From NCBI RefSeq assembly GCF_964194155.1, contig NC_135901.1:27962001-28026000 (forward strand): 64,000 nucleotides of DNA, given 5' to 3'. Shown here in pieces: positions 1,756 through 63,665 of this stretch. The notes under the pieces are model-generated. The model was not told the DNA's origin, made no database searches, and saw only the letters and a list, made by a program, of their open reading frames with translations. The DNA is from Cetorhinus maximus (Eukaryota). The position numbers were made by a program, and so were the translations under genes. Each line of letters begins with the position of its first letter. Position 1 is the stretch's first letter.

Positions 1756-2765
1756 TCACGTGTGAACTTGCTGGTGTCTCAGCAGATTGGATATCTGAGT
1801 GAATCCCTTTCCACACTGAGAGCAGGTGAATGGCCTCTCTCCGGTGTGAACTCGCTGGTGTCTCTGCAGGGTGGTTAACTGAGTGAATCCCTTCCCACAC
1901 TCAGAGCAGGTGAGCGGTCTTTTCCCAGTGTGAATTCGCTGGTGTGTCAGCAGATGGAATAAATCTATGAATTCCTTCCCACACTGAGAGCAGATGTATG
2001 GCCTCTCCCCGATGCGAATTCGCTGGTGTGTTCGCAGGTGGGATGACAGACTGAATCCCTTCCCACACTCAGAGCAGGTGTATGACCTCTCCCTGCTGTG
2101 AACTCGCTGGTGTGTAAGGAGGTTAGATGATTGAGTGAATCCCTTCCCACAAACAGAGCAGGTGAACAGCCTCTCCCCAGTGTGAACGCGCTGGTGCATC
2201 TGCAGGTTATATAACTGAGTGAATCCCTTACCACATTCAGAGCAGGTGAATGACCTCTCCTCAGTGTGAACTCGCTGGTGTAGCAGGAGGGTGGATGAAT
2301 TAATGAATCCCTTCTCATACTCAAAGCAGGTGAATGGCCTCTACCCAGTGTGAACTCACTGGTGTTTCAGCAGGTTTGATGACTGCGTGAATCCCTTCTC
2401 ACACTCAAAGCAGGTGAATGGCCTCTCCCCAGTGTGAACTCGCTGGTGTTTCAGCAGGTTTGATGACTGCGTGAATCCCCTCCCACACACAGAACAGGTG
2501 ATCGGCCTCTCCCCGCTGTGAATTCTTTGGTGATTCTGCTGGGTGGCTAAGTCACTGAATCCCTTCCCAAACTCAGAGCTGGTGAATGGCCTCTCCACAG
2601 CATGAACTCGCTGATGTGCCTGCAGAAGGGATAAACCACTGAATCCTTCTCACACACAGGGCAGGTGAATGGCCTCTCCCTGGTGTGAACACGCTGATGA
2701 GTTTTCAGCTCACATGGGAACCAGAATCCTTTCTCACAGTTCCCACATTTCCATGGTTTCTCCAT
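1756..2765 (-). pseudogene. C2H2 ZNF gene A, 12 finger units, disrupted
   Basis: ACCATGG start (MEKPWKCGNC) at 2765; 1-nt deletion near 2645 in finger 2; in-frame TGA at 2356-2358; remaining fingers run to the stop at 1756. Acceptor at 3109-3110. Confidence 0.85.
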
Positions 2766-3689
2766 GGTGCGGGTGTCCTTGTCCCTCTTCAGGTTCAATG
2801 ATCAGTTGAACATAGGACACGTGTACGGACTCTCCCCGCTATCAATGGTGTGATGTTTTTTTCAGGCTGTATAACTGGTTAAAGCTCTTTCCACAGTCAA
2901 ATGCACTGGAACACTCTCACTCGGGTGTGTCTGTCTAGGTATTTTTTCAGTCACACTGATGTTTAAAATCTTTTGAAGCAGACAGAACAGATAAAGATTC
3001 TTCTTTCTAGATTCAAAGGCCAATAATATTCAGATCCCAATGAATCGAGTGACTCTGTAAGATCTTCATCTGATGTTTGGTTTGAGATTTCTGTCTGTAA
3101 ATCTTCTCCTGTGAAAGGAATTTACAAAAGTCAGCACTGTCAGTACAGGATAGAAATTCAGAACTATTCTAGTTTCTATGGAATATTCTTTCCTCTCTTG
3201 TTACCCAAAAGCTGTAAATCTCCAACCCACACACTCTCCCTCCATTCTCACTCTCCTGTATCTAATATACACCCTTTCAACTGCTGAAGATGCTAATCAA
3301 TGCTGATCGACAGATCATGCTCACCATTTCCTGTCCTGGACACACAGACCTGAAAATCTTCATGCAGGCTGCTAGCCCTATATCTGTCTATATTACTGGA
3401 AAAAATTGTGTGCAATATACAGTCATGTTAGACCTGATTAGCGATATGGTGATGGGGGAGTGAGGAAGAATTTTATTCAGGCAGTGAGTGGACATGACTC
3501 ACAACAACACTAGAAACAAATTCAGAATATACAATTCTAGTTGCTATGACCCCTGTGACTGGAAATATATAAAATGGATGTTAGGTTGCGACAGTACAAA
3601 ATACAGAAATAAGAATATGTATAAGAATATATTTTATCAGAGAACCATAAATAATATACTTAATATGTACCAGAAAACAGCACTAGACA

Positions 3690-4095
3690 TATCTCTGTCC
3701 TATCTTAATTTACTGTCCCCTTAAATGTCAGTCATCTGTTGGGGAAACCACCCCTTTAATTGTGAACATTAGGAAAGAGACCATCCTTTTAGCCAGACAA
3801 ATAAATGTGTCAAGCTGAGGGAGCAAAGGATGTCAATGTCTTTAAGACAGAGAGAGAGAGACCTGGGCCAACCTTTCCAGAGTCTGCACCCTCTCTGGAT
3901 TCACTTCCTTTCCCTTCAGTTCCTGCAAGTCAACAATTTCCCCCCAGAATGAGAAAAGAAAGTGTTTTACTCACAGATGTTGGACACAGGAGGAAGTTTT
4001 AGTCTGTGTGAAACTCAGTCTTCATTCACACAAAGCCCGCGCTCTGATTGGCTGGAGGACCAGAGTCTGTCCGGTCCTCCAATTATTCCCATTGG
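3690..4095 (-). promoter_or_regulatory. Conserved ZNF 5' module of gene A (two CCAAT boxes, exon 1, GTGAGT donor at 3974, micro-exon)
   Basis: Near-identical to eight other copies, each upstream of a ZNF array; ATTGG at 4047-4051 and 4091-4095; about 20 nt deleted in intron 1. Confidence 0.75.
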
Positions 4096-4104
4096 TTAAT
4101 CCCT

Positions 4105-4490
4105 CGCATAAAGACAATTACAGGTATCTCCGGGACATAAAACGTTTCTCGGACTGCTGTTCTAGTCGCATTCTGAGATCCACACTCAGTGCCATGCACT
4201 GCCATATGAACACACTCGACCTCTCCCTCCAGCAGCACCGCCGCATCCTTTTTCAAAGCTGCACGTGCCCCAGTTTCATTTTATTCTTCGTCTCATCCGA
4301 CGCCTCAACAGGAAACTTTTTCTCTTTCTCTCAAGTGCTAAGGAACGCAAGCTCCAACAACTCATCGACACCAATACCCATCCAGGACCCTCCACCCCTG
4401 CCTGTCCCTCTGTCCCTGCCCCATCTTCCAATCCCAGCCCCGGCCGTGTATTCGCTATACCCCCTGACCTTCCCCTCTCCGATGCTAGAG
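4105..4490 (+). mobile_element. Penelope-like element, N-terminal ORF fragment
   Basis: Translates to RILRSTLSAM...FILRLIRRLN...RVFAIPPDLPLSDA, resembling the pre-RT region of fish Penelope ORFs; absent from the paralogous site near 45440. Confidence 0.6.
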
Positions 4491-4682
4491 TGAGAATGGA
4501 GGGAGAGTGTGTGGGTGACATATTGGGGAGGGCAATTGGTGAGTGTGAAACTGAACCCAGGAGTCAGCACCTTCAGGGGAGGAGAATTGGGGAAAAAGCA
4601 GGAGGGGGATAATAGGATGAATTAGTGTTAAATTAAATTGGGAGGAGGGAGTGTGTGGGGGACAGAGATTTATAGCTTGAGA

Positions 4683-10099: not shown

Positions 10100-10530
10100 C
10101 TCTCACATCAAGGTCTCGATAAACTGTGTCCCCAAAACAAAGCTGATTTATTTGACATTTACCCAGAATATTAACCTCCAGCCCAGTTACAGGGGTTATT
10201 AAAATCAACAGAAACAAATACCAACTGTCAGAATGAACATGGTTCAGTCCTGGCTGTGATTAGCAGCAGCAATAACAGCAGAATCCAGCCCTTGGAGTGA
10301 ACAATGGACTCACTGGTGTGTCAGGAGCTGGGATGAGAGAGTGAATCCGTCCCACACTTGGAACATTTAATCAGCCTCTCGCCAGCCTGAACCCACTGCT
10401 GGGCCAGTAGACTGGATGACTGAGTGACTCCATTCCCACATACGGAGCAGGTGAACGACCTCTCCGCGGTGTGAGCTCACACATATGTAATCGAGCTGGA
10501 TGAGGAAGTGAATCCCTTTCTTTCTCCTAC
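10100..10530 (-). pseudogene. Decayed ZNF remnant B (2-3 eroded fingers plus family 3' UTR), divergent partner of gene C
   Basis: [29 protein letters not shown]; family 3'-UTR block at 10225-10290; homologs at 51640-52075 and 63265-63665. Confidence 0.7.
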
Positions 10531-11427: not shown

Positions 11428-11865
11428 GCCAATGGGATTCATTGGAGGACCGGAAGGACTCTGCTCCTCCAGACAATCAAAGCGCAGGATTTGTTTGAAT
11501 GACGATTGAGCTTCACTCGGACGAAAACTTCCTCCTGTGTCCAACATCTGTGAGTAAAACACTTTCTTTTCTCCCCCTTTCCATTTCTTTTCTCATTCTG
11601 GGGGGAAATTGTTGACTTGCAGGAACTGAAGGGAAAGGAAGTGAATCCAGGGAGGGTGCAGACTCTGGAAAGGTTGGCCCAGGTCTCTCTCTCTCTCTCT
11701 CTTAAAGACATTGGCATCCTTTGCTCCCTCAGCTTGACACATTTATTTGTCTGGCTAAAAGGATGGTCTCTTTCTGAATGTTCACAATTAAAGGGGTGAT
11801 TTCCCCAGGATATGGCTGACATTTAAGGGGACAGGAAATTAATATAGGACAGAGATATGTCTGGT
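11428..11865 (+). promoter_or_regulatory. Conserved ZNF 5' module of gene C (exon 1 ends 11549; micro-exon 11623-11672)
   Basis: TCT|GTGAGT donor, 73-nt pyrimidine-rich intron, TTGCAG| acceptor, AAG|GTTGG donor. Confidence 0.75.
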
Positions 11866-12781
11866 ATTGTAATATGGTACATATTAGACTTGATATTTAT
11901 GGTTCAGGAATAAAGTACATTTATTATTATTTCTAGTCTTTTAATATATGTAGGTGTGTACGTATTTAATATATTTTTGGCTGTGTCTTCAAGTTCATTT
12001 ATTATTTCTAGTCTTGTAATATAGTACAGGAGCTACCTTATATATTTCCAGCCTTACCTTCATTACAACACAGAAAGAGTCCATTTGGAAACTCAAGTCC
12101 AAGATCGTGACCACGCGCTAAATAAATAAAGTTCTTCCTCGCATTCCCCCTGTATCTCTCACCAGTAAATATACTTGTATGAGAATTTTCATTTTCACAG
12201 GAGTCAGTGAGCATGCGTTTTTTGATCAGCATGAATCGGCACCTTCAGGAGAATTGGGAGGGTGCACATTCGGTGCAGCAGAGTAAGAACGGAGGGAGAG
12301 TGTGTGGGATACAGATTGACAGCTTTTGGGGAATGAGAGAGGAAAGAATTCTCCATACAAAGTAGAATTGTTGTTTCTGAATTTCTGTCCTGTACTGACA
12401 GTGATGAATTTTGTAAACACCTTTTACAGAAGGGGATTTGCAGACAGAAATCTCAATGTAAACATCACATCAAGATCTGAGAGAGCAACCCATTTCATCA
12501 GGACCTGAATATCACCAGCCTTTGAATCCAGAAGGAGAAATGTTTGTCTGCTCTGTCAGCCTCAATCAGTTTTAAACGTCTGTGTGACTGGAAAAGCACC
12601 AAGACACACACACCCGAGTGAGAATGTTTCCAGTGCACTGACTGTGAAAAGGGCTTTCACCAGTTACACAGACTAAAAAAAAATCACCATTCACAGTGAG
12701 GAGAGACATTGTACATGTTCTGTGCATGGACGAGGCTTCAACTGACCGTTGGACCTGGAGAGACACAAAGACAGCTGCACC

Positions 12782-13372
12782 ATGGAGAAACCATGGAAAT
12801 GTGGGGACTGTGGGAAGGGATTCAGATGCCCATCTGAGCTGGAAATTCATAGACGCAGTCACACTGGGGAGAGGCCGTTCACCTGCTCTGTGGGTGGAAA
12901 GGGTTTCAGTCATTTATCCAACATAATGTCGCACAAACTAGTTCACACCGGTGAGAGATGGTTCACCTGCTCTGAGTGTGGGAAGAAATTCAGATCCCCA
13001 TCTAAGCTGAAGATTCACCGATGCACTCACACCGGGGAGAGGCCATTCACCTGCTTTGAGTGTGGGAAGGGATTCAGTCAGTTATCAAACCTGCAGACAC
13101 ACCGGCGAGTTCACACTGGGGAGAGGCCATTCACCTGTTCTGCGTGTGGGAAGGGATTCAGTGATTCATCTGGCCTGCGGACAAATCAGCGAGTTCTCAC
13201 TGGGGAGAGGCCGTACACCTGCTCTGAGTGTGAGAAGGGATTCAGAGATTCATCCAGCCTGCTGACTCACCAGCGAGTTCACACAGAGGAAAGGCCGTTC
13301 ATCTGTCCTGTGTGCGGGAAGGGCTTCAATCAGTCAAGCAACCTCCTGCGACACCAGCGAGTTCAAAAATGA
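12782..13372 (+). CDS. C2H2 ZNF gene C, 196 aa, 7 finger units (about 4 with all ligands)
   Basis: ACCATGG Kozak, open frame, TGERP linkers; branch point TACTGAC and acceptor TTTTACAG at 12428-12429. Confidence 0.8.
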   Translation: MEKPWKCGDCGKGFRCPSELEIHRRSHTGERPFTCSVGGKGFSHLSNIMSHKLVHTGERWFTCSECGKKFRSPSKLKIHRCTHTGERPFTCFECGKGFSQLSNLQTHRRVHTGERPFTCSACGKGFSDSSGLRTNQRVLTGERPYTCSECEKGFRDSSSLLTHQRVHTEERPFICPVCGKGFNQSSNLLRHQRVQK

Positions 13373-13639
13373 TTACAGGAGTTGGATTCTGCTGTTATTG
13401 CTGCTGTTATTCACATCCAGGACTGAACCATGTTCATTCTGACACTTGGCAAAGTGGGAGGGTCGATGGGTTTCTTTCCGCTGGTCTGGCCGATCTCACG
13501 ACTTTGCTTCCAGTGGGCTGATGCTCTTTGAGCCTGGGAGTGCACATTTCCACTGAAATGATCCACAAAAGCTGATGAAGTACATTTATTTTACCCTAGA
13601 TAGTAAGTAATGATTTTCTTACGACTGGAGGTAAATCTA

Positions 13640-14730
13640 AAAGAAGTACATTTGTCTCTGTTCCATTGAGTCTACAGCACTGGGCCAGGCCAGTTGGCTC
13701 AATTGGTCTCTGTCAGTATTTATGCTCCACATGAGCCTCCACCCACCCCTCTTCTCCCCCCATCAGCACATCCTTCTATTCCTTTCTCCCTCATGTATGT
13801 ATCTAGCTTCCCCTTAAATGTATTCATGCGATTCACCTCAACCACTCACTGTGGTAGCAAGTTCCACATTCTCACCACTCACTGGGTAAAGAGGTTTCTC
13901 ATGAAATCCCTATTGGTTTATTGATCCCCTTCATCATCTTAAAGACTTCCGTCAGGTCACCCTTCAGTCTTCTCTTTTGTAGAGAAAAGCAGCCGCAGCC
14001 TTTCCTGAGGGTTAAATGCTCTCAGTTCTGGAATTATTCTTATGAATCTTTGTTGCCCCTTCTCCAGTGCCTCTATTTCATTTTTCTAAACGGAGATGAC
14101 AAATATTGACAGTACTCCCAGTGTAGGCTAACCATGGTTCGAAACAAGTTGAACATAACCTCCCTGCTTTTCAATTCTATCCCTCTAGAATGGAACCTAT
14201 ATCTGGGCCCCATACTTTTGGAAAGATGTGAAGTTCTTAGAGAGGGTGCAGAGAAGATTTACGAAAATGGCACCAGAGGTGAGGGACTTCAGTTATTTGG
14301 AGAGATTGCAGCAGCTTCAAATGTTCTCTTTTGATCATTGAGTCATCAGGGAAGAAAATGGGGTCATTCTGTCTTTCGAGTCCATGATAGCTCTATATAG
14401 AGCAAACCAGTCAGTCCCATTGCTCCGTGGTATCCCCATAGCCTGGCAAGTTTATTTCCCTGTAGTGCCCATCCAATTTCATTTCAATTTCGCTCATCTC
14501 CTCTGTTTCCACCACACTCAAAGGCAGCGAGTTCCAGGACATTACCACTCGCTGTGTAAAAATGTTCCTCCTCACATCCCCCTGCATCTCCTGCCCAAAA
14601 CCCGAAATCTCTGTCCCCCTCATCCTTGTACCATCAGCGAATGTCTGCCTTATTTAAACCTGTCATAATTTTGTACACCTCTATCAAATCTCCCCTCAAC
14701 CTCCTTTGCTCCAAGGAGAACAACCCCAGT
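13640..14730. mobile_element. Patchwork of decayed CR1 3' fragments (mostly minus strand)
   Basis: RRNIFTQRVVMSWNSLP and related motifs; similar patchwork at 19600-19980, 24830-25640 and 55200-56295. Confidence 0.65.
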
Positions 14731-18110: not shown

Positions 18111-18111
18111 T

Positions 18112-33107: not shown

Positions 33108-33194
33108 GAGCGAGAAGCTGCTTGGAGAACTTGAGAGAGGGGAAGTTGCGCATGTCCAGTGGAGAGCCCGCCCCTTTCGTTCATGGTGAGGGAT

Positions 33195-45720: not shown

Positions 45721-47721
45721 CTGAATTTGATTGTGACGTCCCCTTAGCAAAACAGTTTATTAACTTCAGGTGTCAAGATTTAGACGCTTGGGTGACATAT
45801 TGGGGAGGGCAATTGGTGAGTGTGAAACTGAACCCGGGAGTCAGCACCTTCAGGGGAGGAGAACTGGGGGAAACGCAGGAGGGCGATAATAGGATGAATT
45901 AGTGTTAAGTTAAATATGGAGGAGGGAGTGTGTGGGGGACAGAGACTTATAGCTCGAGAGGGGGTGGGATAGTGGCATTGTCAGTGGACAGGTATTTCAG
46001 AGACCCTGGGTTATTCTCTGGGGACCCGAGTTCGAATGTCACCACGGCAGCTGGCAAAATTTGAATTCAACAAATACCTGGAGTTTAAGGTTTGATGATG
46101 ACAGTGAAACCATTGCCAATTGTTGCAAAAACCCTTCTGATTCCATAAGGAAATCTGCTGTCCTTACCCAGTCTGGCCTACATGTGACTCTCGGCTCACA
46201 GCAATGCGGTTGAGTCATAAATGCCCTCTGAACAAGGGCAATTTGGTATGAGCCACCCACATCACAGAAACGACTGAGAAAAAGGGAGTGGGATGTTCTA
46301 CGACATAATCTTGACCAACTTTATCAATTTCTGTTTCAAAATGATCCTTGGGACCTTGAACTTGAACCCACAATGGACTATGTCAGAGGTAAAGGCCATG
46401 CTGGGCTCAATTATAATGAAAATACAGCACAGAAACAGGACGTTTTGTTACATTGAAGGTGATATATTAATACAGGTTGTTGTTTTATTGAAGGCTGCCT
46501 CTTGAACTCCCTCACTGCACCCTAACTCCAAGACCCCTATGATGAACAGTCTGATCAACAATCTCATTCCCACAGCACAGCACAGCCCAGCCCAGCCATT
46601 CACAGTGAATCTCCTCTCCTCAGGCTCCCTTGTGACTCTGTCCCTGCTCTCTTACTGTGCTGAGTTGATGTGTGAACAAAGCATTTTTGTCTTCAGATTT
46701 TCACTCTGAAAGGTTTAATGCACCAGGAGACGATGAATAGGCTGGGTCACTTCACTCTTGGAAAGACAAGGCTGAGGGCTAATGGAGGTTTTTATAATTC
46801 TGAAAAGTTTTGATAGACACAGAGAATGTTTCCACTTGTCGGAGGGAGAGCAAAATCGGAGGCCATCAACATAAGATAGGGATTGATTAAGCTAATCGGG
46901 AATTCGGGAGAAACTTCTTTCCCAGAGAGTGGTGAGAATGTGGAACTCGCTACCACAGGGAATGGTGGAGGTGAATAACATAGATACATTTAAGGGGAAG
47001 CTGGGTAAACACATAGGGGAGAAATGAACATAAGGATTCACTGAGAGTGAGATGAGAAAGAATGAGATGAGGCTCAAGTGAAGTATAAACACTGGCATGG
47101 ATTGGATGGGCTGAATGGCCTGTTTTTGTGCTGTATATTCAATGTAATTGAACCTGGTATTGCCTTTAACTCTGACATTGTCAATTCCGAGTTAAAGAGA
47201 AATAGTTCAACTCACAGAAGAACATTTCAGCTCATTGTTTCCAGTTATTGTCCAATCACTGCCTCTTGTCAGCCATGTGTCCGAGTGAGGAGCCAAGACA
47301 TTCAACTCAACTACAAACATCTCATGTGATTTGCTCCAATATAACTTGAAGAGCAGATCTTTTGAAATGGACGGAAACTATTTAAATTTACTGGCTCCCA
47401 GTCACTTCCTAAAACAATTATTATTTATCAGCCAGCCTTTTTAATATTGGAGAGTCTGTTTCATCCAGCACAACGCAGCCCACTTTAATGGCAGCCCATC
47501 CGCCACCTTCAATACTCAGTCGCACCACCAGTGCCGTACATGTGGCTGCAGCGTGTACCATCTACAAGATGCACTGCATTGACTCACCGAAGCTCCTTCA
47601 ACATCACCTTCCAAACCCACTACTTCTACCATCTCGAATAGCAACAGACACATGGGAACAGCATCTGTTGAGATTCCCCTCCGAGTGGCGCACCATCCTC
47701 ACTTGGATCTCTATTGCTCAG

Positions 47722-48460
47722 GAAGAGAAGCGCGAGAGGTGCCGGGAGTTGAAGAGAAGCGCGAGAGGTGCCGGGAGTTGAAGGGAAGCGCGAGAGGTGC
47801 CGGGAGTTGAAGGGAAGCGCGAGAGGAGCCGGCAGTTGAAGGGAAGCGCGAGAGGAGCCGGCAGTTGAAGAAAAGTGCGAGGAGTCGGCAGCTGAAGAGA
47901 AGCGAGGGGAGCCGGTAGTTGAAAAGAAGCGCGAGAGGAGCCGGCAGATGAAGAGAAGCGAGAGGAGACGGCAGCTGAAGAGAAGCGCGAGAGGCGCCGG
48001 CAGATGAAGAGAAGCGCGAGAGGAGCCGGCAGTTGAAGGGAAGCACGAGTGACGCAGGTAGTTGAAGGGAAGCGCGAGAGGTGCCGGCAGATGAAGAGAA
48101 GCACGAGAGGAGCCGGCAAATTAAGAGAAGCCGGCAAATTAAGAGAAGCGCGAGAGACGCCGGCAGATGAAGAGAAGCGCGAGAGGAGCCGGCAGTTGAA
48201 GAGAAGCGCGAGAGACGCCGGTAGTTGAAGGGAAGCGCGAGAGGAGCCGGCAGCTGAAGAGAAGCGAGAGGAGCCGGCGGATGAAGAGAAGTGAGAGGAG
48301 CCGGCAGTTGAAGAGAAGCGCGAGAGACGCCGGCAGTTGAAGGGAAGCGCGAGAGGAGCCGGCAGTTGAAGGGAAGCGCGAGAGACGCCGGCAGTTGAAG
48401 GGAAGCGCGAGAGGAGCCGGGAGTTGAAGAGAAGCGCGAGAGGAATCGGGAGTTGAAGAG
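47722..48460 (+). repeat. Expanded ~29-bp minisatellite (~25 units)
   Basis: GAAGCGCGAGAGGAGCCGGCAGTTGAAG(G/A) variants; about 5 units in the paralog. Confidence 0.9.
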
Positions 48461-51436
48461 TCGCCAGCTGCAGATCCTGGAAGTCCCGCTTTCGGAGTTG
48501 AAGCGGCGGCTGGGAAGACTGGAGCATCCGCGAGGTGGAGAGTATCATGGATAGAAGGTATAGAGAGGGGAATGGCCTCTCAGGGGTAAGCAGCAACAGG
48601 CAAATTCGTTACATCACGGTTGGCTCTGCTGCACAGGGGAGGAGTAAAAAGTGTGGGAATGCAATAGTTATAGGGGATTCAATTGTAAGGGGAATAGATA
48701 GGCGTTTCTGTGGCCGCAAATGAGACTCCAGGATGGTATGTTGCCTCCCTGGTGCAAGGGTCAAGGATGTCTCAGAGCGGCTACAGGGCATTCTGAATGG
48801 GGAGGATGAACAGCCAGTGGTTGTGGTACACATTGCTACAAACGACAGAGGTATAATTCTTGAGTCCATTATGAAATATTTAATAGCTGCGCACGTGGAA
48901 AACAGTGGCAGAATCGGACAGAGTCAGCATGGATTTATGAAAGGGAAATCATGCTTGACAAATCTACTGGAATTTTTCTAGGATGTAACCAGTAGAGTTG
49001 ATGAGGGGGAGCCAGTGGATGTGGTTTACTTGGACTTTCAGAAGGCTTTCGACAAAGTCCCACATAAGAGATTGGCGTGTAAAATTAAAGCGCATGGGAT
49101 TGAGGGTCATGTATTGAGATGGATAGAAAACTGGTTGGCAGACAGGAAACAAAGAGTAGGAATAAACGGGTCTTTTTCCGAATGGCAGGCAGTGATTAGT
49201 GGGGTACCGCAGGGATCGGTGCTGGGACCCCGGTTATTCACAATACATATTAATGATTTAGATGAGGGAATTAAAAGTAATGTCTGCAAATTTGCAGATG
49301 ACACAAAGCTGGGTGAGGGGGTGAGTTGTGAGAAGGATGCAGAGATGCTTCAGTGTGATTTGGACAAGCTGAGTGAGTGGTCAAATGCACGGCAGATGCA
49401 GTATAATGTGGATAAATGTGAGGTTATGCATTTTGGTAGCAAAAATAGGAAGGCAGATTATTATCTGAATGGGAATGTGCAATGAGACCTGGGTGTTCTT
49501 GTACACCAGTCGCTGAAGGTAAGCATACAGGTACAGCAGACGGTAAAGAAGGCAAATGGTATGTTGGCTTTCGTAGCCAGAGGATTCGAGTCCAGGAACA
49601 GGGATGTCTTGCTGCAATTGTATAGGACCTTGGTGAGATCATACCTGGAATATTGTATGCAGTTTTGGTCTCCTTATCTGAGGAAGGATGTTCTTTCTAT
49701 AGAGGGAGTGCAGCAAAGGTTTACCCGACTGATTCCTGGGATGGCGGGGTTGACATATCAGGAGAGATTGAATCGTTTAAGATTATATTCACTGGAGTTC
49801 AGAAGAATGAGGGGGGATCTCATAGAAACCTATAAAATTCTAACAGGGCTAGACAGGGTAGCTGCAGGAAGGATGTTCCCAATGGTGGGGGAGTCCAGAA
49901 CCAGGGGTCACAGTCTGAGGATATGGGGTAGGCCATTTGGGACTGAGATGAGGAGAAATTTCTTCACCCAGAGAGTGGTGAGCCTGTGGAATTCGTTACC
50001 ACAGAAAGTAGTTGAGACCAAAACATTGTATGTTTTTAAGGAGTTAGATATAGCCCTTGGGGTGAAAGTGATCAAAGGGTATGGGGAGAAAGCGGGAGCA
50101 GGCTATTCAGTTGGATGATCAGCCATGATCATAATGAATGGTGGAGCGGGCTCGAGGGGCTGAATAGCCTTTTCCTGCTCCTCGTTTCGATATAAAAAAA
50201 TGGATGAGGTCCTCAAAGCAGAATATAGGGAATTAGGAAGTAAGTTGAAAAGTTGGACCTCAAAGGCAGTGATCTCAGGATTACTACCAGTGCTCCATCC
50301 TCATCAGAGTAGGAATAGCAGGATATATCAGATGAATATGTGGCTGAAGGGATGGTGCAATGGGGGAGGGTTTCAGATTCCTGGGACATTGGGACCGGTT
50401 CTGGGCAATGTGGGACCAGTACAAACTGGCCGGGTTACACCTGGGCAGGACTGGGACTGATGTCCTAGGGGGAGCATTTGCCAGAGTGGCTGGGGAGGGT
50501 TTAAGCTAAAATGGTAGGGGGATCCTATGCAAGGAGTCAGGGGAGGGGGAATCAAGGACATGAACAAAAGACAGAAAGGGAAATTAGAAAAGTGATAGGC
50601 AGAGAAATCAAGGGCAAGAATCAAACAGGGCCTCAGTGAAAAATAGTGGGAATGGGACAAGTAATGTTAAAAAGACAAGCCTTAAGGCTTTGTGCCTTAA
50701 TGCGAGGAGCATTTGCAATAAAGTGGATGAATTAAACACGCAAATAGATGTAAACAGGTATGATATAGTCGGGATTACGGAGACATGGCTGCAAGGTGAC
50801 CAGGAATGGGAACTGAACATCCAGGGGTATTCAGTATTTAGGAAGGACAGACAAAAAGGAAAAGGTGGTGGATTTGCATTGCTGGTTAAAGAGGAAATTA
50901 ATTAATAGTAAAGAAAGATATTAGCTCCAACGATGTGGAACCTGTATGGGTGGAGCTGAGAAACACTAAGGGTCAAAAAACGTTAGTGGGGGTTGTTTCT
51001 AAACCCCCAAACTATAGTGGTGATGTTGGGAATGGCATTAAACAGGAAATTAGAGACGCATGCAAGAAAGGAACATCTATAATTATGGGTGGCTTTAATC
51101 TGCATATAGATTGGGCAAATCAAATTAGTAACAATACCGTAGAGGAAGAATTCCTGGAGTGTATACGGGATGGTTTCCTGGGCCAATACGTTGAGGAACC
51201 AATGAGAGAACAGGCTAACCTGGACTAGGTATTTTGTAATGAGAAAGGAATAATTGGCAATTGAGGTGTGCGAGGCTCCTTGGGGATGAGCGACCATAAT
51301 ATGATAGAATTCTTCATCAAGATGGAGAGTGATGTAGTTGATTCTGAGACTAGGGTCCTGAATCTGAATAAAGGAAACTACAATGCTATGAGGCGCAAGT
51401 TGGCTATGATGGATTGGGAAACGTTTCTTAAAGGGA
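48461..51436 (+). mobile_element. Nested CR1 composite, copy 2 (RT insert about 48853-50190)
   Basis: Esterase ORF1, RT (YLDFQKAFDKV, GVPQGSVLGP, FADDTK), ORF1 remainder, then EN. Confidence 0.85.
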
Positions 51437-51639
51437 TGAGCTCAGTCAGTCTCATACTCTCGCCTCTGAGTCTGAAGGTTATGGGTTCAAGTCCCACCCC
51501 AGAGACTCGAGTCCCCCATAATCCAGGGCTGGCACTCTTTCAGTCTTCAGCTGCCAGGATCCTAAACTCTGGAATTCCCTCCCTTAACCTCTCCACTTCT
51601 CTCTCCTCCTTTTAGACTCTGCTTAAAACCTACCTTTTC

Positions 51640-52075
51640 TTCTCTCACATCAAGGTCTTGATAAGCTGTGACCCCAAAACAAAGCTGATTTATTTGACAT
51701 TTACCCAGAATATTAATCTCCAGCCCAGTTACAGGGGTTATTAAAATCAACAGAAACAAACCCCAACTGTCAGAATGAACATGGTTCAGTCCTGGTTGTG
51801 ATTAGCAGCAGCAATAATAGCAGAATCCAGCCCCTGGAGTGAACAATGGACTCACTGGTGTGTCAGGAGCTGGGATGAGCGAGTGAATCCGTTCCCACAC
51901 TCGGAACATTTAATCAGCCTCTCGCCTGTCTGAACCCACTGCTGGGCCAGCAGGCTGGCTGACTGAGTGACTCCATTCCCACATATGGAGCAGGTGAATG
52001 GCCTCTCCCCAGTGTGAGCTCACATATATGTAACCGAGCTGGATGAGGAAGTGAATCCCTTTCCTTCTCCTTCAA
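51640..52075 (-). pseudogene. Decayed ZNF remnant B'
   Basis: [18 protein letters not shown]; family 3' UTR at 51765-51835. Confidence 0.7.
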
Positions 52076-52729
52076 TCTGACCCACGCCATCATGACCTGC
52101 ATCATGGGTAGAACAAGGAGGCAGGTCCCGAATCCACCCCAGCCTGAATGTGGATCGAGCCGCATGCTATTGGCACCAATCTGGTCCGCACTCACCATCC
52201 AGGTGACTGAGCCGACCAGCCCCCATCCACCATAAGGAACAAGAGAAACATACACTGTTATGCGCAATTTACAGTCTGGAGCTATGGATAGTGATGGTCG
52301 CAGCTCCAATTTCTTTCCATCGTGTGGCTGAGCCGAAATCTGTCCCACTCTTACCACCTGTCATTGATGTGTATTGGAAGGTTTTACAAGTTGATGCTAA
52401 ACCTGTTTGGCTGCATCGTGAAGACACTTTCCTTGGCCATCAAGTCCTGGACTGGGACTTGAACCGGGAGCTTCAGGCTCAGCGGCAGGGACACTACCCA
52501 CTGCTCCACAAGACCTACCCCGGCACCCATTGCCCTCCCCAATATGTCACCAGCTGTCTATATCTTTACAGAAAGAGAGTCATATTCTACCCGAAACATT
52601 AACTCCGTTTCTCTCTTCACAGATGATTCCTGACCTGTTGAGTATCTCCAGCACTTTCTGTTTCTATTTCAGTCGAAGTGTTTGCACTCGAAACACCTGT
52701 TTTGCTAAGGGGGCGTCACAATCAAACCC

Positions 52730-53420
52730 AGTGACTACCCACATGTACTTTGTTTCCGGGCGGGGTCACTGCGCTCCCCACCCCACTTTCCATCCCAGTC
52801 CCAGGATTTTGGAGACTGGGCTCCGGATGAGTAATGGCGGCCGCAGCTCCCACAGTCCCCCGCGGTGGGGAAGCCGCTCTATCCACCGCGCGGGCGGGCG
52901 ACCCGGGGCTGCGCATGTCCGAGGTGGAGGGTAAGTTGCCCATGTGCGGGGGAGAGCCCGCCCCTTCCCTTCATGCTGAGGGCTCCACCAATGGGAAAAG
53001 TTGGTGGACCGGATGAACTCTGGCCTTCCAGCCAATGAGAGCGTGGGCTTTGTGTGAATGAAGATTGAGCTTCACACAGACTAAATCTTCTTCCTGTGTC
53101 CAACATCTGTGAGTAAAACACTTTCTTTTCTCCCCCTTTCCATTTCTTTTCTCATTCTGGGGGTAACTTGTTGAATTGCAGGAACTGAAGGGGAAGGAAG
53201 TGAATCCAGGGAGGGTGCAGACTCTGGAAAGGTTGGCCCAGGTCTCTCTCTCTCTCTTAAAGACATTGACATTATTTGCTCCCTCAGATTGACACATTTA
53301 ATTGTCTGGCTAAAAGGATGGTCTCTTTCCTAATGCTCACAATTAAAGGGGTGGTTTCCCCAGGAGATGGCTGACATTTAAGGGGGCAGGAAATTAATAT
53401 AGGACAGAGATATGTCTGGT
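52730..53420 (+). promoter_or_regulatory. CpG-rich core and 5' module of gene I
   Basis: CCAAT near 52988 and 53032, GC box, donor 53109. Confidence 0.75.
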
Positions 53421-54339
53421 GTTGTTATATGGTACATATTAGACTTGATATTTATGGTTCAGGAATAAAGTACATTTATTATTATTTCTAGTCTTTTAAT
53501 ATATGTAGGTACGTACATATTCAATATATTTTTGGCTGTGTCTTCAAGTTCATTTATTATTTCTAGTCTTGTAATATAGTACTGGAGCTGCCTTATATAT
53601 TTCCAGCCTTACATTCATTACAACACAGAAAGAGCCCATTTGGAAACTCAAGTCCAAGATCGTGACCACGCGCTAAATAAATAAAGTTCTTCCTCGCATT
53701 CCCCCTGTATCTCTCACCAGTAAATATACTTCTATGAGGATTTTCAAGTCATGAACAGGAATCAGTGACCATTCATTTTTTGATCAGCATGAATCGGCAC
53801 CTTCAGGAGAATTGGGAGGGTGCACATTCGGTGCAGCAGAGTAAGAACGGAGGGAGAGTGTGTGGGATACAGATTGACAGCTTTTGGGAAATGAGAGAGG
53901 AAAGAATTCTCCATACAAAGTAGAATTGTTGTTTCTGAATTTCTGTCCTGTACTGACAGTGATGAATTTTGTAAACACCTTTTACAGAAGGGGATTTGCA
54001 GACAGAAATCTCAATGTAAACATCACATCAAGATCTAAGAGAGCAACCCATTTCATCAGGACCTGAATATCACCAGCCTTTGAATCCAGAAGGAGAAATG
54101 TTTGTCTGCTCTGTCAGCCTCAATCAGTTTTAAACGTCTGTGTGACTGGAAAAGCACCAAGACACACACACCCGAGTGAGAATGTTTCCAGTGCACTGAC
54201 TGTGAAAAGGGCTTTCACCAGTTACACAGACTAAAAAAAAATCACCATTCACAGTGAGGAGAGACATTGTACATGTTCTGTGCATGGACGAGGCTTCAAC
54301 TGACCGTTGGACCTGGAGAGACACAAAGACAGCTGCACC

Positions 54340-54930
54340 ATGGAGAAACCATGGAAATGTGGGGACTGTGGGAAGGGATTCAGATGCCCATCTGAGCTGG
54401 AAATTCATAGACGCAGTCACACTGGGGAGAGGCCGTTCACCTGCTCTGTGGGTGGAAAGGGTTTCAGTCATTTATCCAACATAATGTCGCACAAACTAGT
54501 TCACACCGGTGAGAGATGGTTCACCTGCTCTGAGTGTGGGAAGAAATTCAGATCCCCATCTAAGCTGAAGATTCACCGATGCACTCACACCGGGGAGAGG
54601 CCATTCACCTGCTTTGAGTGTGGGAAGGGATTCAGTCAGTTATCAAACCTGCAGACACACCGGCGAGTTCACACTGGGGAGAGGCCATTCACCTGTTCTG
54701 CGTGTGGGAAGGGATTCAGTGATTCATCTGGCCTGCGGACAAATCAGCGAGTTCTCACTGGGGAGAGGCCGTACACCTGCTCTGAGTGTGAGAAGGGATT
54801 CAGAGATTCATGCAGCCTGCTGACTCACCAGCGAGTTCACACAGGGGAAAGGCCGTTCATCTGTCCTGTGTGCGGGAAGGGCTTCAATCAGTCAAGCAAC
54901 CTCCTGCGACACCAGCGAGTTCAAAAATGA
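54340..54930 (+). CDS. C2H2 ZNF gene I, 196 aa, near-identical to gene C
   Basis: Differs from C at only two residues (DSSS/DSCS, TEERP/TGERP); acceptor 53986-53987. Confidence 0.8.
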   Translation: MEKPWKCGDCGKGFRCPSELEIHRRSHTGERPFTCSVGGKGFSHLSNIMSHKLVHTGERWFTCSECGKKFRSPSKLKIHRCTHTGERPFTCFECGKGFSQLSNLQTHRRVHTGERPFTCSACGKGFSDSSGLRTNQRVLTGERPYTCSECEKGFRDSCSLLTHQRVHTGERPFICPVCGKGFNQSSNLLRHQRVQK

Positions 54931-57900
54931 TTACAGGAGTTGGATTCTGCTGTTATTGCTGCTGTTATTCACATCCAGGACTGAACCATGTTCATTCTGA
55001 CACTTGGCAAAGTGGGAGGGTCGATGGGTTTCTTTCCGCTGGTCTGGCCGATCTCACGACTTTGCTTCCAGTGGGCTGATGCTCTTTGAGCCTGGGAGTG
55101 CACATTTCCACTGAAATGATCCACAAAAGCTGATGAAGTACATTTATTTTACCCTAGATAGTAAGTAATGATTTTCTTACGACTGGAGGTAAATCTAAAA
55201 GAAGTACATTTGTCTCTGTTCCATTGAGTCTACAGCACTGGGCCAGGCCAGTTGGCTCAATTGGTCTCTGTCAGTATTTATGCTCCACATGAGCCTCCAC
55301 CCACCCCTCTTCTCCCCCCATCAGCACATCCTTCTATTCCTTTCTCCCTCATGTATGTATCTAGCTTCCCCTTAAATGTATTCATGCGATTCACCTCAAC
55401 CACTCACTGTGGTAGCAAGTTCCACATTCTCACCACTTGCTGGGTAAAGAGGTTTCTCATGAAATCCCTATTGGTTTATTGATCCCCTTCACCATCTTTA
55501 AGACTTCCATCAGGTCACCCTTCAGCCTTCTCTTTTCTAGAGAAAAGCAGCCGCAGCCTTTCCTGATGGTTAAATGCTCTCAGTTCTGGAATTATTCTTG
55601 TGAATCTTTGTTGCCCCATCTCCAGTGCCCTTATTTCCTTTTTCTAAATGGAGATGACAAATGTTGACAGGACTCCCAGTGTAGTCTAACCATGGCTTGA
55701 AACAAGTTGAACATAACCTCCCTGCTTTTCAATTCTATCCCTCTAGAATGGAACCTATATCTGGGCCCCACACTTTTGGAGAGATGTGAAGTTCTTAGAG
55801 AGGGAGCAGAGGAGATTTACGAGAATGGCACCAGAGATGAGGGACTTCAGTTATTTGGAGAGATTGCAGCAGCTACAATTGTCCTCTTTAGATTATTGAA
55901 TCATCAGGGAAGAAAATGGGGCCATTCCGTCTATCGAGTCCATGATAGCTCTATATAGAGCAAACCAGTCAGTCCCATTGCTTCGTGGTATCCCCGTAGT
56001 CTGGCAGCTTTATTTCCCTGTAATGCCCATCCAATTTCACTCATCTCCTCTGTTTCCACCACACCTAAAGGCAGCGAGTTCCAGGACATTACCACTCGCT
56101 GTGTAAAAATGTACTTCCTCACATCCCCCTGCATCTCCTGCCCAAAACCTTAAATCTGTGTCCCCCTCGTCCTTGTACCATCAGCGAATGGGAACAGCTT
56201 TTCTTTGTCCACCTTCTCTAACCCTGTCATAATCTTGTACACCTCTATCAAATCTCCCCTCAACCTCCTTTGCTCCAAGGAGAACAACCCCAGTTTGACA
56301 TCAAAAATAAAATATGTTCATGCCTGACATCAAATGTGAATGTTGAATTTCTGTTTTGAAAATATTATGAATATATTGTACTGGACAGTAAAGGTATTGG
56401 AATAACTCACCTTGGGTATTGCTCAGTGGAATATGTCAACCTGGTAACCACCTACATTCTAGTGAAAGGCAAGAAAGTGGAGATCAGATGAATAATTTGA
56501 CATCTTATCTTGGAAATATTTGTTTCCTTTCACAATGATTTTAAAAAAAAGAAAACCACATTTGACAGCCTGGCCAACACCTGAAATATCAGGACCATAA
56601 CAGGGGGAGATAAGCAAAGGCAGACACCCACTTTGATCTTTTGATAAGCACACCTGAAAGTTCAGAATATGTGGAGTGACATTGGGATACCGGTGTGAGT
56701 GTGCAGATGTGATTTGTTACATGTGAAGACAATAGCACGTGTAAATTCATGGCGAAGTGGACTGAAGACTGGGTCCCAAACCATACACAGCTACTTGACA
56801 AACAGCCTGTCATTAAATGGTTAATGTGGCCAGGGGAATGAGACAACATTTTGACATCATCAAGGCACTGACACACACTCCAGAGAGAAACTGACTTTAA
56901 AACAGTCAGAATAGAATTAAACACACTGGTCATGGTCAAAAAATAAGTAAAATTGAAGTAACCGAGACAACATTTGGGTTGGGACAATTAAGGGCTTGGG
57001 AGAAATAATACTGAGTGAGAACTGTCCACAAGTCAGACAGGAGTAAGGAGAGAGCTGGAGAATCTTTTACATCCATGATTGATCTGTTGCTTGAAGCGTA
57101 TGTCCTTATGTACTAGTAACCTAGAACTCACGGTGCTCCTTCAGGAGAAAAGATTGAGTAGGTGTTACCCCAGGTGGGGCCAGAACAGAACTGGAAAATA
57201 ACGGAGTGAAATTGAGTGAGGGGTCAGAGAGAGAGTTCCGCTCCCCCTCAGGGTGTGGACTGTAAGAATCCTGGGGGACCCCCTACTTCGGGTTTTCTTG
57301 CTAATTAGTGAACACTAAATTAAAAACTATGACAGGCTGTGCATTGATTTCTAATTTGATTGTTACATTTATCCTGTTTTTATTCCTGTTGTGATTACTC
57401 TCTGAGTAAGGATGGTTGACAGGTGACAGGAAGGGAAATTGTGGTTTGGAATGCTGACTCCCTGTACCGGGGATGGAGTGTGGGAAGCCAATTGTTTGAG
57501 AGTTTGATGTGGTTTGGGCAGGTACAAATGGTTCAATGACAGGTTTTGTAATTGGTCCATTCAAATGTTAGCTCAGCAATGATTGGGTTAAATCAGTCTC
57601 CATAGACTTTGTGATGTAAAAAAGTATCAGAAGGGATTCCCCGAGCACAGAGATTTGTAGAGGTTTTACATATTGCATTGACTGGTGCCATGGCATCTGG
57701 GGCAGAGCAGGGAGCATTTACATGGAGATGGTGCTTCTACCCAGAGTGTAATGGTAATGCTGCTGCACTTTGATACTACTGCTCAGACATGAGCATGTGT
57801 CAGGTCTTATTTATACTAAATAAAATCTAACCACTGTCACCAATATGGGTTATCACTGTGAATCATTTCAGAGTTTGGGAAAAGGGTATAAACGGTTAAT

Positions 57901-59159
57901 TGACTCCCTGAACCCCATTTTCTAACATCGCTGTTAGAAAATCTCATCTCCCCCTCTGGCTCCTTTGCCACTTACCTGAGAGGGACTCACTTTCTGTAAA
58001 AGAGCCTGCCAACCCCGCTCATCCACTTTCCCTGAAGTGCATAAATCTAATCATGAAAAGCCCAGAAAAATCAAATATTTTTACTGATATAAGTTTATTA
58101 ATGAAACAGAACATGGTTAAAAACAGAAAATTACTTGAGGATCAAAGACAACCAGAGTAAAATGATGTGCACAATGTTCTGCACCCAAATGGTTTATCTT
58201 TAATTCATCTGTCCCCAGTTCACTGCCCTCTTTGTGGAACACCTCCGCTCAGTCCACAAGCATGACCCTGACCTTCCAGTTGCTGCCATTATAATTCACC
58301 ACCTTGCTCTCATGCTCACATTTCTGTCCTCGGCCTGCTGCAATGTTCCCGAGAAGCCCAATACAAGCTGGACGAACAGCACTTCATCCTCCAATGAGGC
58401 ACTTTACAGCCTCCTGGACTCAACATTGAGTTCAACAACTTCAGACCGTCAACTCTGTCCTCCATTTGGATCTATTTTTCGTGGCTGGGTTTGCTGCCAA
58501 CGCGGGGCGTGCTCACTTGTACTGCTTCACGCCGTGACATCATTGTGAGTGATGGAGATCAGAACTCTACTCATTCCCCTAGCCTCAGTGTGATACTCAT
58601 CCTCTCCAGTTAGTTTCTCCCTGTTTTTAAACCAATTTTGAACTCGCAGCAATCCTAATGAGAACTGAAACTGAAGAACAAAATTCAATGAACAATCCTA
58701 GAGAGTGGATTTTGGACAAAGAAGGGGCTATTTCATTCAGAACAAAATTCAATACCCATTTTTCCCTCGGTCACTTCCTTTAGCTTTCTCTGTTTCCATG
58801 GCGTATTTTCAGTTCTATTATATACAAACCCGGGCTGCTCACTCATCAATACCTGAAACATTTTACTATTCTCTGCACTGTCTGTTTCTTTTAACATAGA
58901 GTCAAATACAATCCACTGTTTTCTCTTCCACAATCTGTAACATATGTAGTTTTGTTAACAATAACAACGGAAATGTGTGGTTTTACTTTCCAATGTTTCT
59001 AATCGGGCTGCGTTTACTGCAGGTGCATCCGGCCAATGACGTTATTGGTGTTGAGCGCTCAGACGGACAAGTGCACATGTGCAGACGGGTATTGGTGGCC
59101 ATCTTGTGCAGTCATCTTGTGCGGCCATCTTGCGTTGACAGGGAACAAGGTGTTTTTTA

Positions 59160-59782: not shown

Positions 59783-60541
59783 TCACTTGTGAACTTGCTG
59801 GTGTCTCAGCAAGTGCGATGAGTGAGTGAATCCCTTCCCACACTGAGTGCAAATGAACAGCCTCTCCCCAGTGTGAACTCGCTGGTGTGTCTGCAAATTG
59901 GATGAATGAGTGAATCCCTTCCCACACTCAATGCAGGTGAACGGTTTCTGCCCGGTGTGAACTCGCTTGTGGGTCTGCACGCTGTATGAGTCAGTGAATC
60001 CCTTACTGCACTCGGCGCAGGTGAAGGGCATCTCCCCAGTGTGAATTCACTGGTGTGCCAGCAGGGTGGATGAAACAGTGAATCCCTTCCCACACTCAGA
60101 ACAGGTGAATGGCCTCGCCCCACTGTGAACTCGCTGGTGTTTTCTAAGGTCAGATGAATTACTGAATCCCTTCCCACACTCAGAGCAGGTGAACGGCCTC
60201 TACCAGGTGTGAACTCGCTGGTGTGTCTGCAGATGGGTTGAAATACTGAATCCCTTCCCACACTCAGAACAGGTAAATGGCTTTTCCCCGGTGTGAACTC
60301 GCTGATGCCTCTGGAAGTTGGATGAATCACTGAATCTCACCCCACACTCAGAGCGGGTGAAGGGCCTCACCCCAGCGTGAACTCGCTGGTGAGTCCGCAG
60401 GGTGGAAGAAGCAGAGAATCCCTTCCCACACTCAGAGCAGGTGAACGGCCTCTCCCCGGTGTGACTGCGTCGATGCGTTTCCAGCTTCAATGGGGTTTTG
60501 AATCCCTTCCCACAGTCCCCACATTTCCACTGTTTCTCCAT
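59783..60541 (-). pseudogene. C2H2 ZNF gene J, 9 finger units, in-frame TAG after finger 4 (may encode a 113-aa truncated protein)
   Basis: [17 protein letters not shown]; linker HTGERP reads HTW*RP at 60200-60202; downstream fingers stay in frame. Confidence 0.75.
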
Positions 60542-61499: not shown

Positions 61500-61831
61500 T
61501 GGGGTGTGCAACTCCTCTGAAATTAAATAAGGGACACTTCAGCTGTGGGGCTGGAGGCATGGAGTAGGGGAGGCTGGAGACAGAGAGTGCTGGTTGTGGT
61601 GGGCTTGGGTTTCAATAAGGGGGGTAGGGAGGAGGGGTCTTGCAACGTATCTTGTTTAGTCAGAACATCATCTCTCTGCTGGCCAACTCGCTCACTTACC
61701 GCCCCACTTGAATTGCTCAAATTCACCCTGGAGACCCCTGGGATCAGTTTTCCACAGGCTGTCCTAGAAATATGGGACAAAAGGCAAAATAAGGAGCAAT
61801 CCCTTAAAATGCAGGACAGTTAATCACCCTG
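61500..61831. mobile_element. Non-autonomous hAT-like DNA transposon in the intron of gene J
   Basis: Imperfect TIRs TGGGGTGTGCAACT / AGTTAATCACCCTG; 8-bp TSD ATATTGTC / AAATTGTC; empty site in the other paralogs. Confidence 0.6.
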
Positions 61832-61834
61832 AAA

Positions 61835-62500
61835 TTGTCCCCTTAAATGTCAGCCATCTCCTGGGGAAACCACCCCTTTAATTGTGAACATTAAGAAAGA
61901 GATCATCCTTTTAGCCAGACAAATAAATGTGTCAAGCTGAGGGAGCAAAGGATGTCAATGTCTTTAAGAGAGAGAGAGAGAGACCTGGGCCAACCTTTCC
62001 AGAGTCTGAAACCTCCTGGATTCACTTCCTTTCCCTTCAGTTCCTGCAAGTCAACAATTTGCCCCCAGAATGAGAAAAGAAATGGAAAGGGGGAGAAAAG
62101 AGTGTTTTACTCACAGATGTTGGACACAGGAGGATGTTTTAGTCTGTGTAACGCTCGGTCTTCATTCACACCAAGCCCGCGCTCTGGTTGGCTGGAGGAC
62201 CAGGTCCTTTTTGTCCTCCAACTCTCCCCATTGGTCACTCCCTCAACGTGAAGGTTACGGGGGGGTGGGGTGGGGGCTGTCACCCGCACATGCACAGCTT
62301 TCCCTCTCCCTTGAACATTCGCAGTCCCGGGACGCCCGTCCGCGCAGCAGATAGAGTGCTTTCCCCAGCGCGGGACATTGTGGAAGCTGCGGCCGCCATT
62401 ACCCATCCGGAGCCCAGTCTCCAAACCCCTGACACTGAGATGGAAAGTGGGGGTGGGGGGGTGCAGTGACCTCACCCTGACACAAAGTACATGTGGGTAG
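61835..62500 (-). promoter_or_regulatory. 5' module of gene J and CpG-rich core
   Basis: Donor 62114; inverted homolog of 52730-53400. Confidence 0.7.
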
Positions 62501-63264
62501 TCACTGGATTTGATTGTGACGCTCCCTTCACAAAAACAGTTTGTTAACTTCATGTGTAAAGATTTAGACACCTGGGTGACATATTGGGGAGGGCAATAGG
62601 CGAGTGTGAAACTGAACCCGAGAGTCAGCACCTTGAGGAGAGGAGAATTAGATAAAAGGCAAGAGGGGTAGGATGAATATGGGTGAGACAAAAATGAAAA
62701 TAGAAAGCGCTGGAGACACTCAACAGGGATGGAATCATGTGTGGAGAGAGAAACGGAGTTAACATTTCGAGTAGAATATGACTCTCCTTCTGTAACGGTG
62801 TAGACTCCTGGGTGACATATTGGGGAGGGCAATAGGTAATGGAGGAGGTCTTATGGAGCAGTGGGTGGTGCCCCTGCCTCTGAGCCAGAAGCTTCTGGTT
62901 CAAGTCCGACTCCAGGACTTGATGGCCAAGGAAAGTGTCTTCAAAATGCAGACAAACAGGTTTAGTATCAACTTGTAAAACCTTCGAACACACACCAATG
63001 GCAAGCAGTAAGAGGAGTGGGAGGGCGGGGGAGATTCCTGCTCAGCCGCACGATGGAAAGAAATTGGAACCTCAGCTATCACTATCAGAGCAACTCCCAC
63101 TCCTCGGGGGGCTGGTTGGCTCAGTCGCCTGGAAGGTGGGTATATATCAGATTGGTGCCAACAACCTGTTCTGGCTGGGGTGGATTCGGGATCTGCCTCC
63201 TTGCCCTACCTCTGGTGGAGGTCGTGGCGCAGTGGGTCAGGCCTGTCTGCGCAGAGAACTCAAG

Positions 63265-63665
63265 AAGGAGGAAAAGGATTCACTCTCTCATCGAGCTCGA
63301 TTACATACCAGGGAGAGGCCGTTCACCTACTCCATATGTGGGAATGGATTGACTCAGTCCTACTGGCATGTTCAGACTGGAGATAGGCTGATTAAATGTT
63401 CCAAGTGTGAGAGGGGATTCATTTGCTCATCCCACTTCCTAACACACAAATGAGTACATGTTTGATTGCAGGGGCTGGATTCTGCTGTTACTGCTGCTGC
63501 TCATCACATCCAGGACTGAACCATGTTTATTCTGACAATTGGGGTCTGTTTCTGCTGATGTTAATAACCCCTGTAACTGGGTTGCAGTTTAATATTCTGG
63601 ATAAATGTCAAATAAATCAGCTTTGTTTTGGACACACAGTTTCTCAAGTGCTTGATGTCTCTGAG
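63265..63665 (+). pseudogene. Decayed ZNF remnant B''
   Basis: HTRERPFTYSICGNG...LIKCSKCERGFICSSHFLTHK plus family 3' UTR. Confidence 0.7.

Follow-up and report, generated by a model that had tools for sequence, protein, structure and literature searches.

The FiNZ zinc-finger (ZNF) genes of cyprinid fishes, which are among the systems closest to the one described here, carry a conserved 28-residue N-terminal domain in an upstream exon, and their repression of transposable elements was shown by knockdown (PMC10547256). The same study (Wells et al. 2023) reports that the correlation between ZNF genes and retroelements is independent of the accessory domain and that dozens of families are uncharacterised. 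Large shark ZNF counts are already published in its supplement (703-3586 ZNF open reading frames per assembly in six shark assemblies), and the word 'shark' is absent from its main text. According to the whale shark paper (PMC8455134), KRAB families are lost or absent in cartilaginous fishes, ZNF-rich duplicate clusters were described on catshark chromosomes 13 and 17 (10.1101/2024.05.23.595469), and PMC11603059 covers ray-finned fish. Here, we analyzed a stretch of 64,000 nucleotides (nt) of the shark Cetorhinus maximus (NC_135901.1, positions 27,962,001 to 28,026,000), hereafter the window, which harbors a cluster of Cys2His2 (C2H2) ZNF loci whose finger exon opens with a long dead leader.

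The fossil-finger leader and the question of an effector domain

Canonical C2H2 fingers were located by a six-frame scan, and the arrays opening at the ATG of a MEK(P/L/Q)W motif were numbered g1 to g9 (Table 1). These loci strictly alternate between the minus and plus strands along the window, and outside of them the scan returned only a few scattered C2H2 pieces. With C-x2-C-x12-H-x3-H units joined by TGE(K/R)P linkers, the arrays are of the Krüppel poly-finger type and, as in KRAB-ZNF clusters, each gene has a single finger exon. The start codon lies in a strong context (CACCATGG in 7/9 arrays). The exon-1, intron, leader and 3' blocks common to the copies diverge pairwise by 6-21% depending on the module, a likeness far beyond chance. 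Thus, the coordinates and module divergences bear out a preliminary description of nine loci and three remnants with shared modules, and so do the unit counts for finger-only coding sequences (CDSs) of 4-12 units and the lesions of g1, g4 and g9 for at least three disrupted loci. The shared cassette is real and calls for two refinements only: most of the common CCAAT/exon-1 block is gone from g3 and g4, and only eight loci are independent, because a single ~13-kb duplication accounts for g2 and g8 as well as for r1 and r2. Among the eight independent loci, a zinc ligand is missing in 14 of 62 finger units (including one frameshifted unit and one codon deletion), and g5 is the only one in which all fingers are intact. 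No Rfam family and no tRNA was found in the 64-kb window, and an exact look-up matched none of five window proteins.

By aligning the copies from acceptor to ATG, we found that the 5' end of the finger exon is a leader of ~350 nt composed of a 43-codon acidic linker followed by three former fingers. Its majority sequence contains three stops, present in 6, 5 and 6 of the eight independent copies, respectively. The leader evolves neutrally. Non-synonymous changes were as numerous as 250 for 219 expected (ratio of non-synonymous to synonymous rates, dN/dS, ~1.1), the former Cys/His codons underwent 29 changes for 26 expected, and 28 of the 34 insertions or deletions in 2798 nt shift the frame (one being an artefact of the g6 start coordinate, and some perhaps shared by descent) vs a single frameshift in 5208 nt of adjacent CDS. 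In all nine copies, an in-frame stop lies between the acceptor and the ATG, and no in-frame ATG follows that stop. We also considered that ribosomes might read through the shared stops but discarded this idea, as 2-4 frameshifts per copy lie around them.

Because of the in-frame stops in all nine copies, a KRAB, SCAN or BTB exon located upstream and spliced to the leader acceptors would be untranslatable together with the fingers. Judged from sequence alone, no effector domain can therefore be fused to the fingers via these acceptors, and a distant effector exon spliced to them, the main threat that the preliminary description had named for its claim, is thereby excluded. We also looked for such domains with a local KRAB hidden Markov model, a few SCAN and BTB queries and Pfam scans of 9 and 14 chosen proteins. 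The KRAB model, built from 10 KRAB proteins, gave a best E of 2.6 for any piece of the window vs 1e-11 to 1e-59 for KRAB-bearing proteins, and tblastn with three SCAN proteins and one BTB protein, a weak test, returned only short matches in the window (best E 0.24 and 0.04). Likewise, KRAB, SCAN, BTB and zf-AD were found in none of the 15 chondrichthyan proteins among the 120 listed of 288 long homologues. Together with the direct join of exon 1 to the finger exon in one contig, described below, these data uphold the earlier claim that no effector is fused to the fingers.

In all nine copies, a donor is predicted at the equivalent site of the 5' block, and the predicted acceptor precedes the ATG by ~300-375 nt. 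We compared the contigs of four runs (three guessed to be RNA, one DNA-like) with positions 29600-35200 at 90% likeness. A 468-nt contig from a guessed-RNA run (X1 record 6, ~93% identical), found among the 15 of 300 joints listed, matches 30733-30860 together with 31792-32131. Its join, from 31792 to ~30860, uses precisely the donor predicted for g5, leaves no exon between and fits an AG located 28 nt upstream of the predicted g5 acceptor. Since the identity is only ~93%, this contig comes from a relative or a paralogue. Another contig (X2 record 22) stops one base beyond the g6 donor. Summed contig depth, from which neither copy number nor other evidence was drawn, was high over the cassette in the DNA-like run and close to zero over the distal g6 intron in the three guessed-RNA runs. 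Thus, the contigs support splicing of exon 1 to the finger exon at the level of the family, short of proving expression of the window loci. Upstream of the end of the spliced contig, a CpG-richer patch (32050-32250) carries CCAAT, TGACGTCA and GC-box-like motifs. This patch is likely the promoter of g5 and possibly shared by the head-to-head pair. With regard to a possible mobile element carrying the ZNF cassette, introns are retained in the copies and homology fades gradually on either side of the conserved core.

Selection on the fingers and turnover of the cluster

Selection was measured on 52 fingers, after setting aside g8, all first fingers and the two units that carry the frameshift and the deletion. 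By star counting, that is against modal codons, the framework dN/dS was 0.30 (0.22-0.42), and 0.19 in open genes, while pairwise counting gave 0.22. Counting against modal codons by site class gave 0.18 for zinc ligands, 0.11 for the core Phe/Leu and 0.48 for linkers. In codon models on the finger tree, of which we used the likelihoods and not the omega values, neutrality of the framework was rejected (twice the log-likelihood difference, 2dlnL, of 80). Together, these data show purifying selection on the finger framework, and neutral evolution of the fingers, a further threat to the earlier claim, is refuted. By gene, 1 framework change was observed for 26 expected in g5, 1 for 9.5 in g6, 4 for 26 in g7 and 19 for 45 in g1, and linkers were more strongly constrained in the open genes (0.23) than in the disrupted ones (0.66). 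From its sequence, g5 is the best candidate for a working gene among the nine.

At helix positions -1, 2, 3 and 6, where a dN/dS check had been proposed, the outcome was mixed: dN/dS reached 2.0 by star counting and 1.66 pairwise, but in the codon model neutrality was not rejected (2dlnL 1.2). At -2, +1 and +5, the codon model was significant (2dlnL 6.2), the direction coming from counting only (1.13-1.69). Variation peaks at the DNA-contacting positions -1, +3 and +6 (entropy 2.6-2.9 bits). Because the fingers are not phylogenetically independent, positive selection on helix positions is suggested only.

Self-comparison of the window showed that the two segments of the ~13-kb duplication are 90-94% identical in long blocks and that the g3-g4 spacer is homologous to the g5-g6 spacer, which makes a duplicated head-to-head pair. 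The tract in which g2 is near-identical to g8 (counterpart ~53776-55437) is embedded in this older ~13-kb duplication and includes the neutral leader and 3' sequence, and the windows flanking it mostly differ by 4-9%. On sequence grounds, it would reflect either a recent gene conversion or an assembly collapse. The exon-1 ends of g2 and g8 differ by 19%, and therefore their 5' parts have been exchanged. Matrices of module distances showed no positive correlation (seven loci, low power), which is consistent with mosaicism. As read from these comparisons, the copies are shown to arise by inverted and segmental duplication, to swap segments by gene conversion and often to decay.

Within the cassette, conservation is highest in intron 1, over the ~280 nt that follow the donor (11550-11830 in g2), with 4-9% divergence between all paralogues, several-fold below every other module, coding fingers included. 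The departure per copy is 0-4% in this core vs 12.8% in the leader; the edges of the core are sharp and most of its changes are singletons. A candidate mini-exon within the core has 18-19 of its 21 residues identical in gene models of Scyliorhinus torazame, vs 59-71% for the leader. A structured RNA was rejected for the core, which shows no folding signal (z -0.5) and no Rfam match. Pure constraint was found insufficient, with 17 differences between g2 and g8 vs 5.5 expected at four-fold constraint. As g2 and g8 differ in the core at nearly the flank rate, conversion contributes to its conservation, and constraint and conversion probably both act on it. That the core is a common cis-regulatory element is our guess.

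Proposed mode of action and its alternatives

We consider it probable, with a good deal of room for doubt, that the cluster belongs to a family of finger-only C2H2 genes that spans the sharks, evolves by birth and death and works as follows. A non-coding exon 1 is spliced, at the level of the family, to one large exon, whose leader, a former coding linker plus three fingers already dead in an ancestral copy, would now be a 5' untranslated region (UTR). Despite several upstream ATGs, translation would start at the strong-context MEKPWK ATG and yield a protein of 4-12 fingers without effector. Since the zinc-binding framework is kept while the recognition helices diversify, the activity under selection would most likely be the binding of specific DNA sequences. 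The proteins might act by site occupancy or finger-mediated contacts on repeat-derived DNA, a tentative suggestion drawn by analogy with KRAB- and FiNZ-ZNFs. A broader picture, in which sharks possess a large finger-only repertoire that recognises transposons and repeats, silences or stabilises them without fused effector, is co-regulated via one intronic element and is tuned by a fossil-finger 5' UTR with stops older than the shark-superorder split, is rather unlikely to hold as a whole.

Several observations weigh against this proposal. Each leader copy has 1-5 upstream ATGs, which may suppress translation. The spliced contig stems from a relative or paralogue and from a run only guessed to be RNA, in a small listed share of the joints. 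On the selection side, the codon model gave no significant signal at helix positions -1, 2, 3 and 6, and the framework dN/dS of single genes spans from 0.04 (g5) to 0.93 (g3, few sites). Finally, three of the eight independent loci are disrupted, and g2 and g8 have 3 of 7 fingers broken.

In one alternative, the cluster is mostly a decaying, recombination-driven amplification of a few functional founders, the purifying signal being a relic of the past together with homogenisation among finger repeats. The many broken fingers and three dead loci would fit, as would the helix pattern, which is the same in disrupted and open genes, the conversion-like g2/g8 tract and the mosaic 5' ends. Such a decay would not, however, easily account for 27-28 frameshifts in the leader vs one in the adjacent CDS, which is about as old and almost twice as long, for framework changes far below expectation in g5, g6 and g7, or for linkers more constrained in open than in disrupted genes, and we regard it as unlikely. 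We give even less weight to products working on or as RNA, either as RNA-binding poly-finger proteins or as transcripts whose output is set by a leader laden with upstream open reading frames and by ribosome stalling on the fingers. The lack of effector agrees with it, and so do the upstream ATG that six of the nine copies have at the former first finger, the non-coding nature of the most conserved cassette sequence and, in zebrafish, the reported ribosome collision and mRNA decay upon translation of tandem C2H2 fingers (PMC11620358). Nevertheless, variability is maximal precisely at the DNA-contacting helix positions, the linkers are canonical TGERP, the core has neither folding signal nor Rfam match and the leader sequence is neutral.

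An N-terminal effector hidden in an alternatively spliced exon, be it the conserved mini-exon or a distant one, and providing a short FiNZ-like peptide, appears highly improbable. By inspection, a single frame runs through exon 1, the mini-exon in its 50-nt form and the linker, and the mini-exon is translated in the Scyliorhinus torazame models mentioned above. These models, however, contain no fingers and no Pfam domain, any frame through the mini-exon ends at the leader stops ahead of the live fingers, the intron around it is conserved equally, and the N-termini of homologous shark models are mutually unrelated. Finger-only proteins translated from the MEKPWK ATG remain the reading that we favor.

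Table 1. Features of the cluster in window coordinates, with the ATG, leader and donor of each locus where reported
Feature	Position	Strand	Details
g1 CDS remnant	1756..2765	-	ATG 2765; 12 units, disrupted by two stops and a finger-2 frameshift; leader 2766-3108; exon-1 donor 3975
Remnant r1	10220..10520 (approximate)	-	2-3 broken terminal fingers and common 3' block, as in r2 and r3
g2 exon-1 end and conserved intron-1 core	11430..11830	+	donor after 11549
g2 tract near-identical to g8	12218..13879	+	4 differences/1662 nt
g2 leader	12430..12781	+	acidic linker and three dead fingers; predicted 5' UTR
g2 CDS, open	12782..13372	+	ATG 12782; 7 units, 3 without a zinc ligand
g3 CDS, open	20105..20443	-	ATG 20443; 4 units (3 intact); leader 20444-20784; donor 21305; exon-1 block mostly replaced
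g4 CDS, pseudogene	23538..24548	+	ATG 23538; 12 units, the first one with a stop; leader 23241-23537; donor 22389; deletion of the CCAAT/exon-1 block
g5 CDS, open	29880..30470	-	ATG 30470; 7/7 fingers intact
g5 leader	30471..30862	-	acceptor predicted at 30834; contig X1 record 6 is joined as expected for an alternative acceptor at 30862
g5 conserved intron-1 core	31510..31791	-	
g5 non-coding exon 1 and CpG-richer promoter region (likely)	31792..32210	-	spliced contig covers to 32131
g6 exon-1 end and intron-1 core	33190..33598	+	donor after 33318; candidate mini-exon 33392 to 33441 or 33451
g6 CDS, open	34570..34959	+	ATG 34570; 4 units (last with codon deletion); leader 34195-34569
g7 CDS, open	42196..42786	-	ATG 42786; 7 units (6 intact); leader 42787-43135; donor 45315
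Second copy of ~13-kb segmental duplication	45789..58794		first copy 4512-17226
Remnant r2	51763..52064 (approximate)	-	duplicate of r1
g8 CDS	54340..54930	+	ATG 54340; 7 units; duplicate of g2; leader 53988-54339; donor 53108
g9 CDS remnant	59783..60541	-	ATG 60541; 9 units; two stops; leader 60542-60895; donor 62115
Remnant r3	63311..63542 (approximate)	+	inverted homologue of r1/r2

The window also contains other repeats. LINE-like reverse-transcriptase remnants, presumably of CR1/L2 type, lie at 7296-8243, 37187-37924, 43372-44396 (in the g7 intron) and 48982-50115, with RVT_1 confirmed for 7296-7631 and 48982-49482. A 29-nt CpG-rich tandem repeat adjoins such a remnant in each duplicate (6605-6753, 5 copies; 47722-48460, ~25 copies). 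Just downstream of g7, a 63-nt minisatellite of ~14 copies (40915-41759) has long open frames on the plus strand, one of which was scanned and gave no Pfam match. Finally, a repeated element with a degraded frame (16352-16913, 22020-22262, 28691-29248, 32734-33093, 35536-36083 and 57938-58479) presumably resembles the end of a Penelope/GIY-YIG retroelement, although the one frame scanned had no Pfam match; part of this element replaces g4 exon 1.

Distribution in sharks and comparison with known systems

Most proteins returned by an initial search for homologues were generic fingers. A leader profile found a single longer protein, a histone-H2A chimeric model. A second profile, made of three pieces of the leader with stops as X, had 602 matches, and most of the 150 listed cover the finger part alone. 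Of 20 proteins looked up for covering the linker or the first-finger motif, 17 were named, all from sharks of seven genera (Heterodontus, Pristiophorus, Scyliorhinus, Carcharodon, Cetorhinus, Mustelus and Stegostoma). Their N-termini are unrelated, and in the six scanned the fingers were the only Pfam domain. Three of the 16 chondrichthyan models examined, in Heterodontus and Pristiophorus, start at MEK(P/A)WK. One skate protein has a matching first-finger motif, and the four ray proteins examined showed no leader. A lineage-specific family of cartilaginous fish had been proposed: its shark origin stands, but the family is shark-wide and not local.

The second shared stop position coincides exactly with the end of four models (two from Pristiophorus, one from Heterodontus and one unnamed) and the third with the end of a Carcharodon model, both seen at the protein level only. 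This suggests that the second and third stops predate the galeomorph/squalomorph split, more than 200 million years ago, and that the first stop is younger. A second shark subtype (P0111, P0141, P0153, P0159 and P0269) has the linker followed by another first finger, which lies behind an in-frame Met; the linker family therefore has at least two branches. In public models P0110 and P0346 (both Pristiophorus), P0116, P0117 and P0111, histone genes are fused to the leader, or neighbouring finger genes are concatenated, which suggests that ZNF clusters adjoin histone clusters and that the family is not reliably annotated.

The dead leader explains many odd shark gene models, whether truncated, chimeric or concatenated, and the common 5' sequence offers a handle for family-wide knock-down or profiling. 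Moreover, because the sequence itself shows that no effector can be fused, the family provides a clean test of bare finger arrays acting on repeats.

In the literature searched, with subscription papers largely outside, we found no description of the shared architecture of this shark family. Its closest relatives are shark models named 'zinc finger protein 239-like', '850-like' or 'ZFP2-like', which have the same MEKPWKCGDC first finger and the same leader under names borrowed from human genes. The cluster resembles insect ZAD-ZNFs and cephalopod C2H2 expansions (PMC12513265) as a lineage-restricted poly-finger expansion; unlike ZAD-ZNFs, to which its sequence is unrelated, it displayed no ZAD, the window not having been searched for that domain. 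As in tetrapod KRAB-ZNF clusters, the genes lie in tandem, their fingers are all encoded by one last exon downstream of a linker and are joined by TGE(K/R)P linkers, the helices vary and pseudogenes are frequent, but there is no KRAB exon, the upstream exons are non-coding and the first three fingers are dead as 5' UTR. With cyprinid FiNZ-ZNFs it shares a KRAB-independent expansion, a two-exon layout, rapid turnover and fast helix evolution, as reported for the former (PMC10547256). In contrast to FiNZ genes, the leader stops leave no upstream peptide readable in frame with the fingers, a comparison made without a FiNZ profile search. Thus, the shark cluster is built like a KRAB-ZNF or FiNZ-ZNF cluster and, as its predicted structure reads, lacks the N-terminal domain that defines each of them. 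It is ordinary in kind and unusual in detail, being shark-wide and combining a fossil-finger 5' UTR with a conserved intronic core.

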